From positions 203,197 to 267,196 of the forward strand of contig JBIOWE010000004.1 in the NCBI GenBank assembly GCA_044868145.1: 64,000 nt of DNA, given 5' to 3'. The position numbers and the translations under genes were made by a program. The DNA is from Patescibacteria group bacterium (GTDB taxonomy: Bacteria; Patescibacteriota; Patescibacteriia; UBA10025; JBIOWE01). A model generated the notes under the pieces. The model did not search any database and was not told where the DNA came from. It was given only the letters and a program-made list of their open reading frames with translations. Within the stretch, counting starts at the first letter, position 1, and each line of letters begins with the position of its first letter. This document shows, piece by piece, positions 2,857 to 53,467 of this stretch.

Positions 2857-4599
2857 ATGGCCAAAAACGAGGACACAATCCATCCAACAACCGATCAGGG
2901 AATTGCCGATCTCATGGGTGAAAACCACGCAAGCAAGCCAGCGGTTGCGTCCGAAGAGCAACAGCAGAAATTCAAAGAAAAGATGCAAGATATCGAGATT
3001 CGCGAAAAAGAGCGAATTGCGCGAGATCGTGCAAACGAACTTGGTATCGGTTATATCGATCTGAAAGGGTTTCCCATAGCGCCGGAAACTCTTTCCTTGA
3101 TTTCGGAAGAGCAAGCTCGAAAGTGTAGAACGGTAGCGTTTTTGCACAGTGGCAATGAGCTCCGGCTCGGCACCATAGATCCGGAAAACCCGGACGTTGT
3201 TGCGTTACTGCATGAACTGGTTGAGCGTGAGCATGTGAATGGCGCGCTGTATTATATTTCCGAACACAGTTTAGAGCATGCGCTGAAAAATTATGCACGT
3301 TTGCCAAAACATATGCAGCAGATCGGCGGTGTTGCAATAAGCGCCGCTGACTTGCAGAAGCACCAGGCGAAGATCGGTAACTTTCGCGACATAGCCGATA
3401 GCGTGTCACGTGTCTCTTTATCGGACGTGATGACCGTCATCATCGCCGGCGCGGTACAATCACGAGCGTCCGACATTCACATCGAGGCCGAGCAAGACGA
3501 CGTGAAGGTTCGCTACCGCATTGACGGCGTTCTCCATGACGTCGCTAGCATGCCGCATGACCAGTGGCCTAAAATTATTAGCCGGATAAAATTACTCGCC
3601 CATTTGAAAATTAATATATCGGACGTGCCTCAAGATGGTCGCTTCACCATTACGTTACCTAAGGAAGAAATCGACGTCCGCGTTTCATCGGTGCCAACTG
3701 CGTATGGCGAAAGCGTTGTGATGCGGTTACTCATGTCGTCGTCCGCACGCTTAACATATGATGATCTTGGCATACAGGGCGAAGCGCATCTTCTTCTCGA
3801 GCGCGAGTTAAAACGTCCGAACGGAATGATCCTTGCAACGGGGCCAACCGGATGCGGAAAAACGACAACGCTCTACGCGCTACTCAATAAACTCAACAGC
3901 CCGGAAACAAAAATCATAACTCTGGAAAACCCCGTCGAATACAAAATTAAAGGAATCAATCAAAGTCAGGTGGACACAAGTCGCGGCTATAATTTTGCAA
4001 AAGGACTACGTTCCATACTTCGTCAGGATCCGGACGTCGTGATGGTCGGCGAAGTGCGCGATCCGGAAACAGCCGAAATCGCGATCCAGGCAGCGCTCAC
4101 CGGACACCTACTGCTTTCGACCATGCATACCAACAGCGCGGCAGGAACAATCCCTCGCCTGCTCTCGATGCAAGTCAAACCCTTTCTGCTCGCACCCGCA
4201 CTCAATGTTATTATCGGCCAGCGGCTTGTCAGAAAGATATGCGAGCACTGTAAGGTTGAGAAAAAAATAGATAAAGAACAGTCATCCCGCGTGCAAGAGG
4301 TTATTGCATCGATGCCGGAACACGCAAAAAAAGAGGCCGAATCTAAACCATTAAAGTTTTACGAAGGGAAAGGCTGTCGAATATGCAGTGAAATCGGATA
4401 CCGAGGCAGAATCGGCGTTTTTGAAGTATTTGTGGTTGACGAAGACGTGGAAAAAATGATTCTCGCAGGACAAATATCCGAGCATGAACTGCAGGGCCTT
4501 GCTGTCAAAAAAGGGATGTTGACGATGGTCCAAGACGGCATCCTGAAAGCGATTGCCGGCGTAACGACCGTCCAGGAAGTGTTTAAAGTAACCGAATAG
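2857..4599 (+). CDS. pilB: Type IV pilus assembly / type II secretion ATPase PilB/GspE
   Basis: T2SSE_N-like N-terminal domain, Walker A GPTGCGKTTT, Asp/His boxes, and a C-terminal tetracysteine (CEHC...CRIC). The ORF track starts at 2836; 2857 (MAKNED) is the more likely start. Confidence 0.9.
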   Translation: MAKNEDTIHPTTDQGIADLMGENHASKPAVASEEQQQKFKEKMQDIEIREKERIARDRANELGIGYIDLKGFPIAPETLSLISEEQARKCRTVAFLHSGNELRLGTIDPENPDVVALLHELVEREHVNGALYYISEHSLEHALKNYARLPKHMQQIGGVAISAADLQKHQAKIGNFRDIADSVSRVSLSDVMTVIIAGAVQSRASDIHIEAEQDDVKVRYRIDGVLHDVASMPHDQWPKIISRIKLLAHLKINISDVPQDGRFTITLPKEEIDVRVSSVPTAYGESVVMRLLMSSSARLTYDDLGIQGEAHLLLERELKRPNGMILATGPTGCGKTTTLYALLNKLNSPETKIITLENPVEYKIKGINQSQVDTSRGYNFAKGLRSILRQDPDVVMVGEVRDPETAEIAIQAALTGHLLLSTMHTNSAAGTIPRLLSMQVKPFLLAPALNVIIGQRLVRKICEHCKVEKKIDKEQSSRVQEVIASMPEHAKKEAESKPLKFYEGKGCRICSEIGYRGRIGVFEVFVVDEDVEKMILAGQISEHELQGLAVKKGMLTMVQDGILKAIAGVTTVQEVFKVTE

Positions 4600-30737: not shown

Positions 30738-30809
30738 TGGGCGAGGATGGAGTCGAACCATCGCCCCCGTGTTTATAAGACACGTGCTCCACCGTTGAGC
30801 TACTCGCCC
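30738..30809 (-). tRNA. tRNA-Ile (anticodon TAT, i.e. UAU, decoding AUA). Unusual for bacteria. No CCA encoded
   Basis: Manual fold of the minus strand: acceptor GGGCGAG/CTCGCCC, D-arm GCTC-AACGGTG-GAGC, anticodon stem CGTGT/ACACG with loop CTTATAA (U33 and A37 present), T-arm GATGG-TTCGACT-CCATC. Confidence 0.7.
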
Positions 30810-46769: not shown

Positions 46770-49424
46770 ATGTATCTGCAGAAACTCGAAATTCAAGGGT
46801 TTAAGTCCTTTGCGACCAAAGTACATTTGGAATTTACCGAGGGTATTACCGCGGTGGTCGGTCCGAATGGTTCAGGGAAGTCCAACATCGCTGACGCAGT
46901 TCGTTGGGTGCTCGGAGAACAGAGCATGCGCCTTTTGCGCAGTAAAAAAGCCGACGACGTGATCTTCGCAGGGTCCGACAAGAAAACCAGGCTTGGGTTC
47001 GCCCAGGTCGATTTGCATTTCAATAACGAGGACCACAAAGCGCCCCTCGATTATCCCGAAGTGGTCATTTCGCGGCGCGTGTATAGGTCCGGCGAGGGAG
47101 AATATTTCATTAATAAGAATAAAGTACGACTCCAAGATGTCTTGCTCTTGCTTGCAAAATCAAGCGTGGGCCAGCGCACCTACTCCATCATCAGCCAAGG
47201 GATGGCTGATATGATTTTGAATCTGACGCCCGCGGAGCGGAAGAATTTCTTCGACGAGGCCGCCGGCGTTCGCGAATTTCAGATAAAAAAAGATCAAGCC
47301 GAGCATAAACTTGACGCGACAACCGAGAATATCAAGCAGGCCGATCTGCTCATTCACGAAATTGCGCCGCGACTTCGGTCTCTCACGCGCCAAGTCCATC
47401 GGCTTGAACGCCGCGGTGAAGTGTTGGCCCAATTGAAGGAATCACAACACCGGTATTACGCTTGGACTTGGCATGATCTCGCAAAGCACATCAGCGAACA
47501 GGAACGCAAACAAACCGACGCAACGAGCGCGCAAGAGGCGATTGCCAAAACCGTCAATACGCTCAAACAGCAATTGGAGGCTTTGAGTCAGGGGGGGTCG
47601 CGCACGCAAGCGTTTCAAAAACTTGAGCGCGAATATCGCGTGCTCACCGAGGAAAAAAGTAAATTGCTCCGCGATGAAGCGCGCTTGAAGGGTAAAATGG
47701 ACGTCGAATTGGAGAAAACCGGGCATGCGAATCTTGGTTGGCTCGAGCGCCGTCTAGAAGAGTTGGAGGGTCGCCGCACGCAACTCGAGGAGGAGCACGC
47801 ATCACTCGAAACCGAGCGCAAGGGCATGGCTCAAAAACAAGACGTGATAACGCGGGAATTGCAAGGCGTCATTCGAACAATCGAGCAGCTCAATAGCCAA
47901 ATCGAGCAGCAGAAAAATAAAGTACACAGCCAGCGGTCAACCGCGGTTCGCGAAATGGCGAATGACGTCGCGCAGTTATATGAACGTCAGGAGGCGTTCT
48001 ACGAAAAATTACGCGCAGCCCAGTCTACCGGCGACCTGAAACAACTGCAAGCGGAGGCGAAGAATATCACGGACGGCCTCAAAGACCTTTCGTTTAAACT
48101 CCGCGATCAGGAAACAATGAGCCCGGAAGAAGCGCTCGCGTTGCAAGCGAAGCTTACTGAACTGTATCAGCAGAAAGATCGCTTGACGCAGACGTTGCAT
48201 GAGTGGAACATGAAGACGCAAGCGGTAGACGAACGCCTTTCGTTTGCCCGTGAAGAACTCGACGAAACGGAAACCGAGCGGGAACGCGCCAGCGGCGAAT
48301 ACACGGCTGCAAAGAGTCAGGCCGGACCGGGTGGACAAGGGGTATTGCGTGAAGAAATTGAAAAAATCGTTCAGCACATAAAAAAGGTTGATGCGCAGAT
48401 ACTGGATCTTTCGCAGCAGCTCGCGGCTTTCCATGACCAAGAGGAAAAGAAAAAAACGGAAATTGTGCGCATCCAGCGAGCGCTCTCTGACGCTCAAACA
48501 AAGCTCGCCGGCGCAATGACGGTATCGAACGATATCAAAGTTGAGCTTGCGCGACTGGAAACGCGCCGGGAAGATTTGTTACGCGAAATGCGTGACGAAT
48601 TGTTACACGAAGAAATGGATCGAGCAAAAAATGTTCGCGAGGCGTCGCCGATCAAGGAGGATGCGTTCCAAGAGATTCAACGCCTCAAAGCACAGCTTTC
48701 GCAAATCGGCGGTATAGATCCGCAAATTGAAAAAGAATACACGGAAACAAAAGAACGCCACGATTTTCTTACAACGCAAGGCAAGGACTTGAAGAAAGCG
48801 ATGGAGGATTTGGAAGTGACGATCGAGAACCTCGATAACCAGATGAAATTGCGATTCAACAAATCTTTTGAAGCTATTAATGAGCAGTTTGGTCAATATT
48901 TCAAAATACTTTTTAATGGTGGCAGCGCAAAGCTGGGCCTCATTAAAGAAGTACCCCAGGAAGATGTGGTCATGGATGAGGAACAGGGAGAGAGTCCCGA
49001 AGAAACGGAAGAGGACCTAGAGGAAGAGCAGAAGCCAAAAGGTGAAAAAATTATTACTGGTGTAGAAATTATCGCACAGCCACCGGGCAAGCGTCTCAAA
49101 GGGATCAGCATGCTTTCCGGGGGCGAGCGCGCGCTCACGTCCATCGCACTCATTTGCGCGATTATTCATAACAATCCCTCGCCGTTTATTATTCTTGACG
49201 AGGTGGACGCAGCGCTTGATGAATCAAACTCTATTCGTTTTTCCTCGATTTTAGGGCAGCTCTCCAAAAAAACACAATTTATTGTGGTCACGCACAATCG
49301 CGCAACCATGCAAAAGGCGAATATTCTCTATGGCGTGACTATGGGCGACGACGGCGTTTCAAAACTTCTTTCAGTGAAAATGGAAGAAGCGGAACGCGTG
49401 ATTGAGCGAGGGACGAGGGGTTGA
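46770..49424 (+). CDS. smc: SMC-like chromosome segregation ATPase (884 aa; SMC head halves and coiled coil, no recognisable hinge)
   Basis: N-terminus MYLQKLEIQGFKSF...GPNGSGKSNI. C-terminal signature LSGGERALTSIALICAI...ILDEVDAALDE. The central region is entirely coiled-coil-like, with no Gly-rich hinge and no CxxC hook. No SD precedes the ATG. Confidence 0.8.
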   Translation: MYLQKLEIQGFKSFATKVHLEFTEGITAVVGPNGSGKSNIADAVRWVLGEQSMRLLRSKKADDVIFAGSDKKTRLGFAQVDLHFNNEDHKAPLDYPEVVISRRVYRSGEGEYFINKNKVRLQDVLLLLAKSSVGQRTYSIISQGMADMILNLTPAERKNFFDEAAGVREFQIKKDQAEHKLDATTENIKQADLLIHEIAPRLRSLTRQVHRLERRGEVLAQLKESQHRYYAWTWHDLAKHISEQERKQTDATSAQEAIAKTVNTLKQQLEALSQGGSRTQAFQKLEREYRVLTEEKSKLLRDEARLKGKMDVELEKTGHANLGWLERRLEELEGRRTQLEEEHASLETERKGMAQKQDVITRELQGVIRTIEQLNSQIEQQKNKVHSQRSTAVREMANDVAQLYERQEAFYEKLRAAQSTGDLKQLQAEAKNITDGLKDLSFKLRDQETMSPEEALALQAKLTELYQQKDRLTQTLHEWNMKTQAVDERLSFAREELDETETERERASGEYTAAKSQAGPGGQGVLREEIEKIVQHIKKVDAQILDLSQQLAAFHDQEEKKKTEIVRIQRALSDAQTKLAGAMTVSNDIKVELARLETRREDLLREMRDELLHEEMDRAKNVREASPIKEDAFQEIQRLKAQLSQIGGIDPQIEKEYTETKERHDFLTTQGKDLKKAMEDLEVTIENLDNQMKLRFNKSFEAINEQFGQYFKILFNGGSAKLGLIKEVPQEDVVMDEEQGESPEETEEDLEEEQKPKGEKIITGVEIIAQPPGKRLKGISMLSGGERALTSIALICAIIHNNPSPFIILDEVDAALDESNSIRFSSILGQLSKKTQFIVVTHNRATMQKANILYGVTMGDDGVSKLLSVKMEEAERVIERGTRG

Positions 49425-49459
49425 CACGGCGGGCCGCGTGCTGTACCATCAACAATACT

Positions 49460-49900: not shown

Positions 49901-50035
49901 AATTGACAACAGATATTTGGTATGATAGGCTCTTTTGTAGAAGTAGCCTCTTCCTTGACGCAAAGAAATATTATCAAATCTAAAGGTCGGCAGGCTTGAA
50001 AGGCTATCTTTTTTAGAGAAACTACTTAAGAATTC

Positions 50036-50392
50036 TTGAAGACTATGGTTGCACGAGCAAGCGCTGGTACGCCAGCTGGAAAAGATCAAGAGTTCGTCGA
50101 GTACGTGGTAAAAGGGCTCGTTGACCGCCCCGAGGACGTCAAAGCCGAACGGACCGTTGACGAGATGGGCGTCTTGATTACGCTCAAGGTGAATCCGGCC
50201 GATCTCGGCCAGGTCATTGGCCGCCAAGGCCAAACAGCCAAAGCGATTCGAACATTGCTTCGCGTTGTTGGCGCAAAGAACCACGCTCGCGTGAACTTGA
50301 AGATCCACGAACCGGAAGGGTTCCGCAAAGGGCCCGCTCCGCGAGAACAAGTGGCTGAAGACACCTCAGCCGTTGACGATTTGAAGATTTAA
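50036..50392 (+). CDS. KH-domain RNA-binding protein (YlqC/UPF0109-like)
   Basis: KH GxxG loop (VIGRQGQTAKAIRTLL). Canonical position between rpsP and trmD. Confidence 0.7.
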   Translation: MKTMVARASAGTPAGKDQEFVEYVVKGLVDRPEDVKAERTVDEMGVLITLKVNPADLGQVIGRQGQTAKAIRTLLRVVGAKNHARVNLKIHEPEGFRKGPAPREQVAEDTSAVDDLKI

Positions 50393-50456: not shown

Positions 50457-51122
50457 ATGCGCATCGATATTCTCACAATTTTTCCCCACATTTTCGATTC
50501 TTATTTCCAAGAAAGTATTTTGAAGCGCGCGGTCGCGAAAAAAATTCTCTCGTTTCATATTCATGATATTCGTCGCTTCGCTCGCGATAAGCACCGCACC
50601 GTGGATGACCGTCCGTATGGCGGCGGGCCAGGGATGATTTTGAAAATCGATCCACTCTATCGGTGTTTGCAGGCAGTGCCAAAAAAGAAGAACCGTCGTG
50701 CGATTTTGCTCACTCCCGGAGGAAAGATATTGCATCAGGGGTCCGTGAAGCGGCTAACGCGTTATGATCAATTGATATTAGTGTGTGGGCGCTACGAAGG
50801 GTTTGACGATCGGATTCGACCATATGTTGACGAAGAAATTTCCATCGGTGAATATGTACTTACCGGCGGTGAATTGCCCGTCATGGTTGTTGTGGATGCG
50901 GTGAGCCGGCACATTCCCGGCGTCCTTGGCAATGAAGCGTCTTCGAAAGATGAAACGTTCTCCAAGGGCAATACCTTGGCTGAATATCCGCAATACACCC
51001 GACCTGAAAAATTCCTTGGGAAACGCGTTCCACCCGTGCTCTTGAGCGGTGATCATAAGAAAATTGAGGCGTGGCGCGAGCAACACCGGCGCAAGCGGCC
51101 GATTCGTCGGCACAATCCTTGA
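50457..51122 (+). CDS. trmD: tRNA (guanine37-N1)-methyltransferase TrmD
   Basis: N-terminus MRIDILTIFP plus SPOUT-knot motifs (GRYEGFDDR, LTGGELP). Confidence 0.93.
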   Translation: MRIDILTIFPHIFDSYFQESILKRAVAKKILSFHIHDIRRFARDKHRTVDDRPYGGGPGMILKIDPLYRCLQAVPKKKNRRAILLTPGGKILHQGSVKRLTRYDQLILVCGRYEGFDDRIRPYVDEEISIGEYVLTGGELPVMVVVDAVSRHIPGVLGNEASSKDETFSKGNTLAEYPQYTRPEKFLGKRVPPVLLSGDHKKIEAWREQHRRKRPIRRHNP

Positions 51123-51147
51123 CAAAGTCCACTTTTCGGTATACAAT
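51119..51147 (+). promoter_or_regulatory. Consensus sigma-70 promoter (TTGACA-17-TACAAT) overlapping the trmD stop codon
   Basis: ccTTGACAaagtccacttttcggtaTACAATacg. The -35 is perfect and the -10 near-perfect, with a 17-nt spacer. Confidence 0.65.
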
Positions 51148-51260
51148 ACGCGTGCCAAGATCGATAGGTTGAAATTGGCTAATTTAAAAGGAAAAGGAGA
51201 CAAAAACTTAGCGGAGCAGACGATTATATACATCATAAATTAACGGTTTCGTCATTGTTT

Positions 51261-51292
51261 GAATCCCGCTTAAGTTCTGGGATTCTTTTTTG
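51261..51292 (+). terminator. Intrinsic terminator (GAATCCC-gcttaagttct-GGGATTC + TTTTTTG) about 110 nt downstream of the promoter
   Basis: Canonical hairpin plus a U-tract. The intervening 51154-51260 has no start codon after its AAGGAGA. Confidence 0.7.
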
Positions 51293-51411
51293 TCCCTTAA
51301 GTGACCTTTGACAATGAACATGTGACAGGAACCTGGTATGTAACCCATACCAGTCGGGAACGTCATAGTTGAAGCAATGAGCGATGGTGAATGCCATCCT
51401 TATTGTTTCTT

Positions 51412-52921
<1,510 letters not shown>

Positions 52922-53115
52922 AGGGAGAATAATGATTGTTTGTCGACATCAGCTCTGCTGATGACTTTAGTTCGTGGGCGTTCCCATTCTTGTCACATTT
53001 TCATTGCCAAAACCTCGACACGTTCGAGGTAAACCAAAACACATTGGCTTTACAATGCCAATGTTTTTTGTTAGCATGGAACAGTAATTGGCAAAATGAC
53101 CCCGCATAAAAATTT

Positions 53116-53190
53116 GGGTGCGTAGCTCAGTGGTAGAGCACGTCACTGATAATGACGGGGTCGGAGGTTCGATCCCTCCCGCACCCACCA
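53116..53190 (+). tRNA. tRNA-Ile (anticodon GAT), CCA encoded, in the 16S downstream spacer
   Basis: GGGTGCGTAGCTCAGTGGTAGAGCACGTCACTGATAATGACGGGGTCGGAGGTTCGATCCCTCCCGCACCCACCA. Anticodon loop CTGATAA. Confidence 0.9.
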
Positions 53191-53196
53191 ACCCCA

Positions 53197-53440
53197 AATT
53201 TTGTACGGGGCAAGTAATGACGAGGTTTAAGGTCTCAGGCCTGTCCCGTAAAAACGAGCATAGCGAATTTTGTGCGGGATTCGAATCCTGAGCCGCCCAC
53301 CGAGGGTGAAAAGAGCGCGCTTGCCCCGCAGGCGAGCGACGTAAAGTCGCGTTGCGACCACGTCGCTCTACGCGAAGCGAATTGTGCGGGGTCACTGATA
53401 ATGACGAGGTCGTCCCGCCAAGGCGGACCGTACCCACCAG
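53197..53440 (+). repeat. Three tRNA-Ile-derived degenerate repeats (AATTTTGTRCGGGG...TAATGACGAGGT) flanking a stem-loop-rich 150-nt insert that contains a GGATTCGAATCC T-loop-like palindrome
   Basis: Copies start at 53197, 53266 and 53379. The third reproduces the tRNA-Ile anticodon arm (GTCACTGATAATGAC) and 3' terminus (ACCCACCA) but has a non-tRNA hairpin in place of the T-arm. Strong hairpin GAGCGACG...CGTCGCTC at 53325-53369. Confidence 0.5.
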
Positions 53441-53467
53441 TGAGGATTATTATAAAAACCACAAAGT

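Follow-up and report, generated by a model that had tools for sequence, protein, structure and literature searches.

The short interval between trmD and the 16S rRNA gene in a 64-kb window of a Patescibacteria (candidate phyla radiation, CPR) genome, the window being the whole stretch of DNA that was analysed, probably encodes a cis-acting terminator/antiterminator attenuator which forms the leader of the 16S transcript; we would give this reading a probability of about 0.6. As such it would be a leader RNA family outside Rfam, of the attenuator type and with an unusual target, the 16S rRNA gene. An earlier sequence-only reading had proposed a discrete small RNA of ~135 nt and, as a second possibility, an attenuated 16S leader. 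The promoter and terminator are compatible with the former, as a short RNA would be made whenever termination occurs, but the evidence favours the latter: the unit tracks the 16S gene, the leader-trailer helix of the 16S precursor begins 16 nt beyond the terminator, and the terminator hairpin faces a conserved competing antiterminator. The elements concerned are the following.

51119..51147, + strand: sigma-70-type promoter, TTGACA-17-TACAAT (11/12 match; an 11/12 promoter at the equivalent place in 7/7 homologous loci)
51154..51179, + strand: 5' hairpin P1, GCCAA (51154-51158) pairing with TTGGC (51175-51179), opening at the deduced transcription start (minimum free energy (MFE) fold, alignments)
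51167-51174, + strand: conserved apical motif of P1, GGTTGAAA (alignments)
51175..51189, + strand: segment 1 and linker, TTGGCTAATTTAAAA, in relatives GCUAAAUUAACA (invariant GCTAA and TTAA columns)
51188..51200, + strand: purine tract AAGGAAAAGGAGA, Shine-Dalgarno (SD)-like (sequence, alignment)
51207..51218, + strand: conserved box CTTAGCGGAGCA (YUAGCGGARCA), 5' strand of the antiterminator (alignment, duplex analysis, pair counts)
51219..51252, + strand: AU-rich spacer, kept in length and not in sequence
51253..51277, + strand: 3' strand of the antiterminator, which is the 5' flank, 5' arm and loop of the terminator (duplex of -18.6 kcal/mol with 51204-51225 by RNAduplex)
51261..51291, + strand: predicted intrinsic terminator, GAATCCC / 11-nt loop / GGGATTC, then T6 (sequence; hairpin and U5-6 in 7/7 homologues)
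51305..51332, + strand: boxA-like motif CCTTTGACAAT and 5' strand of the 16S leader-trailer helix (51307-51332) (recurrence in CPR leaders; trailer duplex)
51410..52919, + strand: 16S rRNA gene, the putatively controlled gene (Rfam RF00177, 1417.8 bits)
52980..53012, + strand: 16S trailer strand pairing with leader 51307-51332 (duplex energy)
50457..51122, + strand: trmD, tRNA m1G37 methyltransferase (open reading frame (ORF), Pfam PF01746 E=4e-58, homologues)

The sole strong promoter upstream of the 16S gene is that at 51119-51147, its -35 hexamer (TTGACA, 51119-51124) and -10 hexamer (TACAAT, 51142-51147) separated by a spacer of 17 nt, with the TGA stop codon of trmD (51120-51122) lying inside the -35 hexamer; it was the best-scoring site of a 10-kb scan. 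Six sites of at least 11/12 were found on the two strands of the whole window against 0.78 expected from Markov-1 random sequences and, as promoter-like sites are enriched over random expectation, they are considered genuine features of this genome. Judged by the spacing from the -10 hexamer, transcription would start at about G51154. The distance from the end of the -10 hexamer to the terminator stem is 113 nt, that from G51154 to the end of the T-tract 138 nt and that from the T-tract to the start of the 16S gene (51410) 119 nt. The sequence-only reading, which had placed a TTGACA-17-TACAAT promoter over the trmD stop codon, a terminator ~110 nt past it and the 16S gene ~120 nt past the terminator, was accurate on each of these points. 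Promoters of the form TTGACA-17-TAnnnT were also seen at 49421-49449 (SMC stop/rpsP start) and 49903-49931 (end of rpsP, before the gene for a KH protein), and promoters set into the 3' end of the gene before them seem to be customary in this genome and not specific to trmD.

The complete unit of promoter, 5' domain, box and terminator was found in six further Patescibacteria loci, giving seven distinct sequences with that of the window: L081 (also L082, L093), L102, L083 (also L084, L085, L096), L091 (also L094), L100 (also L099) and L089 (also L097). Homologues were drawn from contigs coding for the closest TrmD proteins and from one metagenome pattern scan; five of the seven loci came from the TrmD look-ups, independently of the motif search, and the pattern scan gave eight matches, three of them false, which contributed one new sequence only, on two contigs (L091, L094). 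Each locus has the same order of parts, namely an 11/12 promoter, an RCCAA start 7-8 nt past the -10 hexamer, a hairpin enclosing GGUYGAAA, GCUAAAUUAACA, an A-rich stretch ending in AAGGARA, the box YUAGCGGARCA, an AU-rich spacer of ~40 nt and a CCCGC/GCGGG-type hairpin with U5-6, over a total length of 131-138 nt; a divergent version is present in L088. A comparison with other genomes in which 16S follows trmD had been suggested from the sequence and, alongside the six loci that carry the unit, it brought up two, L001 and L086, which are without it and have a consensus promoter directly before boxA. The unit tracks the 16S gene and not trmD, for in L081 it still adjoins the 16S leader although trmD is separated from it by a polyprenyl synthase gene that ends in a strong terminator of its own. 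A covariance model built from the seven sequences found one copy in the window, with no further copies elsewhere in the 64 kb or in 28 other loci, and no homologues of the unit were found in a viral-contig scan, in phage records or in plasmid records.

The leader-trailer helix, which opens at 51307, 16 nt past the end of the T-tract at 51291, ties the unit to the 16S transcript. Its duplex energy is -33.8 kcal/mol against -19.3 +/- 3.4 kcal/mol for shuffled trailers, an equivalent pairing is found in L081 and L083 and, as this is a processing helix, the start of the 16S precursor must lie upstream of 51307. The gap of 15 nt between the T-tract and the helix is too short for a promoter. The window, L081, L083 and L091 have no promoter of at least 9/12 between the terminator and 16S, and L089 has only a single weak 9/12 match (4310-4338), so that a second promoter at this place was rejected; the spacers of L081 and L089 contain weak matches which are not conserved. 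As the helix starts 16 nt past the T-tract and no other promoter is available, we infer from the sequence that 16S transcription starts at the 51119-51147 promoter and reads through the terminator. In all seven loci the unit is directly followed by a boxA-like motif and then by 16S. This motif, CCUUUGACAAU at 51305-51315 in the window, stands downstream of and outside the flagged element, and (G)AUCUUUAACAA-like versions of it recur in ten CPR 16S leaders, from loci both with and without the element, the boxA of E. coli being UGCUCUUUAACAA.

The box (CUUAGCGGAGCA; full pairing region about 51204-51225) is complementary to part of the terminator. Of all upstream sequence, it pairs best with the terminator 5' flank, arm and loop in 7/7 sequences, at -11 to -22.5 kcal/mol against -6 to -9.3 kcal/mol for the hairpins, and the helix is present in the MFE fold of the full transcript. 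The terminator loops diverge yet stay complementary to the 5' flank of the box, AACUUAG pairing with CUUAAGUU in the window and GCCUAG with CUAGGC in L083 and L100; in L089 the pairing is CUAGCGG.ACA with UGU.CCCGCUA, and between L081 and L102 a G-C pair of the antiterminator is changed to A-U. The equilibrium probability of the hairpin in transcripts ending at the terminator 3' arm, P(terminator), is 0.001-0.045 in six of the seven sequences (0.045 in the window), and five ordinary terminators of the window given the same treatment reached 0.44-0.84; by this calculation the antiterminator is predicted to outcompete the hairpin in those six.

The box has a second partner. Its best upstream match in 6/7 sequences is the UU(U)NGCUA segment on the 3' side of P1, and the resulting helix (1:2) is the RNAalifold consensus of the 5' domain. 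Segment 1 is able to pair either with the 5' arm, as P1, or with the box, giving a series of helices that exclude one another: P1 (5' arm with segment 1), segment 1 with box, box with terminator 5' arm (the antiterminator), and the terminator itself. The choice between these helices would be a regulated one. With P1 formed first, the default state predicted by folding is read-through, which is fitting for an rRNA gene.

The hairpin and U-tract at 51261-51291 is, by prediction, an intrinsic terminator. Its two arms (51261-51267 and 51279-51285) make a stem of four G-C and three A-T pairs, and T6 (51286-51291) follows directly after the stem. It had been described as a textbook terminator with a 7-bp GC stem and six U; the 7 bp and the T6 are there, but the stem is not all GC and, with a loop of 11 nt and a hairpin of -8.6 kcal/mol, weaker than all five others in the comparison (-11.2 to -17.1 kcal/mol), it is rather less than textbook. 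An automated terminator scan which allowed loops of up to 8 nt missed this hairpin because its loop is 11 nt. A hairpin that is not conserved would have told against the sequence-only reading; instead, it is present with a U-tract in 7/7 homologues. Since trmD and the promoter have no terminator between them in the window, the hairpin would also end the trmD operon.

Between P1 and the box lies the purine tract, whose AAGGAGA (51194-51200) has no ATG, GTG or TTG within initiation range, as had been pointed out, and there is no usable ORF between the promoter and the terminator. Tract and box are 11 nt apart in 6/7 sequences and 13 nt apart in that of the window. The predicted duplex of the tract with the anti-SD (-9.6 kcal/mol) ranks among the best 1.6% of 14-mers, a usual strength for an SD, and the idea of an exceptionally strong anti-SD site was rejected as the affinity is only ordinary. 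The spacer from the box to the terminator arm measures 38-42 nt in the homologues with an identity of 0.30-0.42 between distant pairs, as against 0.51-0.78 in the 5' domain. The P1 loop showed no significant pairing with the spacer (p 0.12-0.84).

The Rfam scan proposed along with the small RNA was run on 51050-51409: none of the Rfam 15 families (T-box, L19 leader, 6S, SRP RNA, known riboswitches, EAR and Bacillaceae-1 included) matched at the gathering score or, with permissive filters, even at E<=10, and ARAGORN found no tRNA or tmRNA in the same interval between trmD and 16S. T-box-like sensing of tRNA was rejected, UGGN being present in the box of one lineage only (L083) and there being no Rfam T-box match. 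A ribosomal protein leader acting by mimicry of rRNA was likewise rejected, as local alignment of the 5' domain with the organism's own 16S was no better than with shuffles in three genomes. No conserved leader-16S duplex recurred, the best sites differing among genomes, and no aptamer-like fold was established in the 5' domain.

Taken as an attenuator, the leader would work as follows. RNA polymerase would initiate at about G51154 from the near-consensus promoter overlapping the trmD stop codon and would first make the conserved 5' domain, comprising P1 with its GGUYGAAA loop, GCUAAAUUAACA, the purine tract and the box YUAGCGGARCA, before crossing the ~40-nt AU-rich spacer to a weak intrinsic terminator. 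If the box is free, it would form the antiterminator with the terminator 5' flank, arm and loop first, blocking the hairpin, and the polymerase would go on through boxA and the leader-trailer helix to the 16S gene. With the box sequestered, whether by pairing with the UUGGCUAA segment when P1 is unformed or by a bound factor, the hairpin would form and transcription would end, leaving an RNA of ~138 nt which would be a by-product or, possibly, have a second function.

This interpretation should be considered with some caution, as several results weigh against it. Only seven sequences from three or four lineages are available, and in one of them, L081, P(terminator) is 0.95 and the hairpin is favoured, unlike in its close relative L102. 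Covariation in the antiterminator is weak (two pairs with double changes; a score of 0.122 against 0.078 for shuffles), and none was found among the seven sequences in the terminator or in helix 1:2 because both sides are conserved. Shuffle tests of individual sequences were significant for the antiterminator in only 4/7, and for helix 1:2 in none of the seven. The register of P1 varies between lineages, its 5' arm being shifted in the L083 group (GCG..CGC in L083, GCA..UGC in L100), and no single consensus fold of the sensor domain was established. Lastly, an intrinsic terminator before an rRNA gene is without precedent, which in itself calls for caution; we know of no conditional intrinsic terminator before an rRNA gene, and a full-text literature search found no description of an attenuator, riboswitch or intrinsic terminator switch in an rRNA leader.

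A further step would be to see in the leader of these bacteria, whose genomes are reduced, a sensor for direct feedback on ribosome production, in which an effector on the 5' domain or the box blocks the antiterminator and so stops the single 16S gene; we hold this to be doubtful. The effector might be the free 30S subunit, bound to the SD-like tract that precedes the box by 11-13 nt; other candidates, put forward with the same hesitation, would be a nucleotide or alarmone, a KH-domain protein or a protein of ribosome assembly.

The unit could instead be an independent gene for a trans-acting small RNA (sRNA) of ~138 nt which is merely parked before the 16S gene, the latter being expressed by leakage of the terminator and the conserved single-stranded motifs serving as seed or protein-binding regions. 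It is, after all, a complete promoter-terminator unit without an ORF, its length (131-138 nt) is conserved over seven loci along with its sequence motifs, and relatives which lack it (L001, L086) still express their 16S. We nevertheless regard an sRNA gene as unlikely, as in every locus the unit runs straight into the 16S leader, leaving no space for a second promoter, and the terminator of a stable sRNA should not lose to an upstream helix, yet P(terminator) is at most 0.045 in 6/7 sequences. The single copy per locus, with none elsewhere in the 64 kb, and the failure to find recurrent complementarity to 16S rRNA also speak against it.

It is also conceivable, if rather improbable, that the leader is constitutive: the hairpin and U-tract would then be a fixed partial terminator or pause which ends trmD-operon transcripts and damps a very strong promoter, whilst the complementarity of box and terminator merely sets a constant read-through or helps the folding of the rRNA. 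Such a role would suit the window, which has no other terminator between trmD and the promoter, and it would agree with read-through as the predicted default and with the failure to identify an effector or an aptamer-like fold. However, insulation is needless in L081, L083 and L100, where a terminator or structured spacer already follows the upstream gene ahead of the promoter; nor would a fixed leak need the ~70 nt of conserved sequence upstream of the box, and switches typically show the kind of three-way complementarity that links segment 1, the box and the terminator arm. A leader-peptide attenuator, in which the SD-like tract drives a very short ORF overlapping the box and the position of the ribosome picks antiterminator or terminator, is highly improbable despite the AAGGA(R)A lying 11 nt from UAG in 6/7 sequences and an AUG just before CCU AGC GGA ACA UAA in L089, for AUG occupies the start position in L089 only (the window has AAA, L081 ACG, L083 and L091 CUG), the codon there lies a mere 2-4 nt from the SD-like tract, and neither the length of the frame nor the position of its stop is conserved, the frame in the window running through the terminator.

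If the interval is indeed a switchable 16S leader, it has affinities with several known systems. The pyr/PyrR and trp leaders are protein-dependent attenuators. Terminator/antiterminator platforms further include riboswitches and protein-dependent leaders such as the L20-dependent infC leader of B. subtilis (PMC1865079). As in these attenuators, the leader is promoter-proximal and non-coding with a conserved upstream region, the putative sensor, and one segment can pair either upstream or with the terminator 5' arm, exclusive helices 0:1, 1:2, 2:3 and 3:4 being possible; it differs from them in that the downstream gene encodes an rRNA and not an mRNA, and in having no recognisable known aptamer or protein-binding motif (Rfam negative).

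Antitermination in rrn leaders, both in E. coli and in other bacteria, depends on a boxB-boxA-boxC arrangement and on NusB/NusE/SuhB (PMC10250234, PMC4807359). The present leader resembles these in lying between an rRNA promoter and 16S, in the boxA-like CUUUGACAA which follows, in the hairpin before boxA at the position of boxB, and in the leader-trailer helix. However, the hairpin here has a U5-6 tract, as a genuine intrinsic terminator would, and is preceded by ~110 nt of extra conserved RNA and, as it is upstream of boxA, the Nus complex cannot yet shield the polymerase when it gets there; the relatives without the element (L001, L086) show the ordinary promoter-boxA layout of rrn leaders. 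The rimP leader has been listed among the "orphan" premature terminators with no visible antiterminator (Naville and Gautheret, 2010, PMC2965389). It shares with the present leader a conserved premature terminator before a gene of the translation apparatus and the conservation of the stem sequence; however, the antiterminator here is strong and there is no sequence relationship.

Two other comparisons concern parts of the leader only. In STAB-SD, known from the cryIIIA leader of B. thuringiensis, an SD-like sequence without a start codon binds 30S in the 5' leader and stabilises the mRNA; the conserved SD-like purine tract likewise lies in an untranslated leader without an initiation codon, but STAB-SD is not tied to a terminator switch and the anti-SD affinity found here is only ordinary. 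The Bacillaceae-1 RNA motif of Rfam is a structured non-coding RNA sometimes found beside rRNA operons, a setting comparable to that of the leader, although there is no Rfam match at E<=10 and both architecture and taxon differ.

Synthesis of rRNA is the main cost of making ribosomes, and model bacteria control its initiation (through ppGpp/DksA, the initiating NTP and Fis) and protect its elongation with the boxA/Nus complex. Patescibacteria have one rRNA operon and minimal regulatory repertoires. A true switch before the 16S gene would therefore mean a different route to setting ribosome output in this group and a new structured RNA family and, were the feedback sensor also to hold, the first known riboswitch-like attenuator of an rRNA gene. 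Even the more modest reading is of use in annotation, as the strongest promoter near trmD would be that of the 16S gene, the primary transcript of which would begin ~256 nt upstream of the mature 5' end.

The gene order around the leader is SMC (46770-49424), rpsP, a gene for a KhpA-type KH protein (50036-50392), trmD, the flagged interval, 16S, tRNA-Ile(GAT) and tRNA-Phe, trmD being the last gene of the SMC-rpsP-KH-trmD block and the two tRNA genes 3' of 16S being identified by ARAGORN. The best database relatives of TrmD have 55-67% identity and come from Patescibacteria, Kerfeldbacteria and Uhrbacteria assemblies. The rplS gene expected after trmD is missing, as the sequence-only reading had remarked, and tblastn of the whole 64-kb window gave nothing below E=2; its absence is not notable, however, trmD followed by 16S being the usual gene order across this clade. 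A remnant of an L19 (rplS) leader was rejected as there is no Rfam match and the element tracks 16S and not trmD. An Rfam search across the 64 kb found no 23S gene.

Downstream of the 16S gene, a terminator-like hairpin (ACATTGGC..GCCAATGT and T6, -11.2 kcal/mol) lies at 53041-53077, between 16S and tRNA-Ile, and is overlapped by a promoter-like TTTACA-17-TAGCAT (with TG); to judge from these sequences, 16S and the tRNAs may be transcribed separately. The 280-nt spacer between tRNA-Ile(GAT) and tRNA-Phe (53190-53467) holds a 22-nt copy (53391-53412) which is 95% identical to the tRNA-Ile anticodon arm (53142-53163), together with short repeats of TAATGACGAGGT (three times) and ACCCACCA-like ends, and on sequence grounds these copies look like decayed duplicates of tRNA-Ile. 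In other Patescibacteria loci, Rfam matches to group II intron domains D1-D4 were found directly 3' of 16S (L001 6667-6746, L031 8341-8440), and the 16S gene of L083 has a length of ~1,680 nt, which suggests that it carries an insertion.

Upstream of the 16S promoter, a GC-rich segment of ~150 bp between trmD and the promoter is inverted between the related contigs L090 (4651-4803) and L100 (2253-2410), the alignment scoring 129 in reverse complement against 68 forward. It is flanked by the inverted repeats ACCCCGC..CACTTTTGC and GCAAAAGTG..GCGGGGT and is not present in the window; its sequence would fit either an invertible segment or a long palindromic element. Elsewhere in the window, ARAGORN identified a tRNA-Ile gene with the anticodon TAT at 30738-30809 (- strand), which represents a rare mode of reading the AUA codon.

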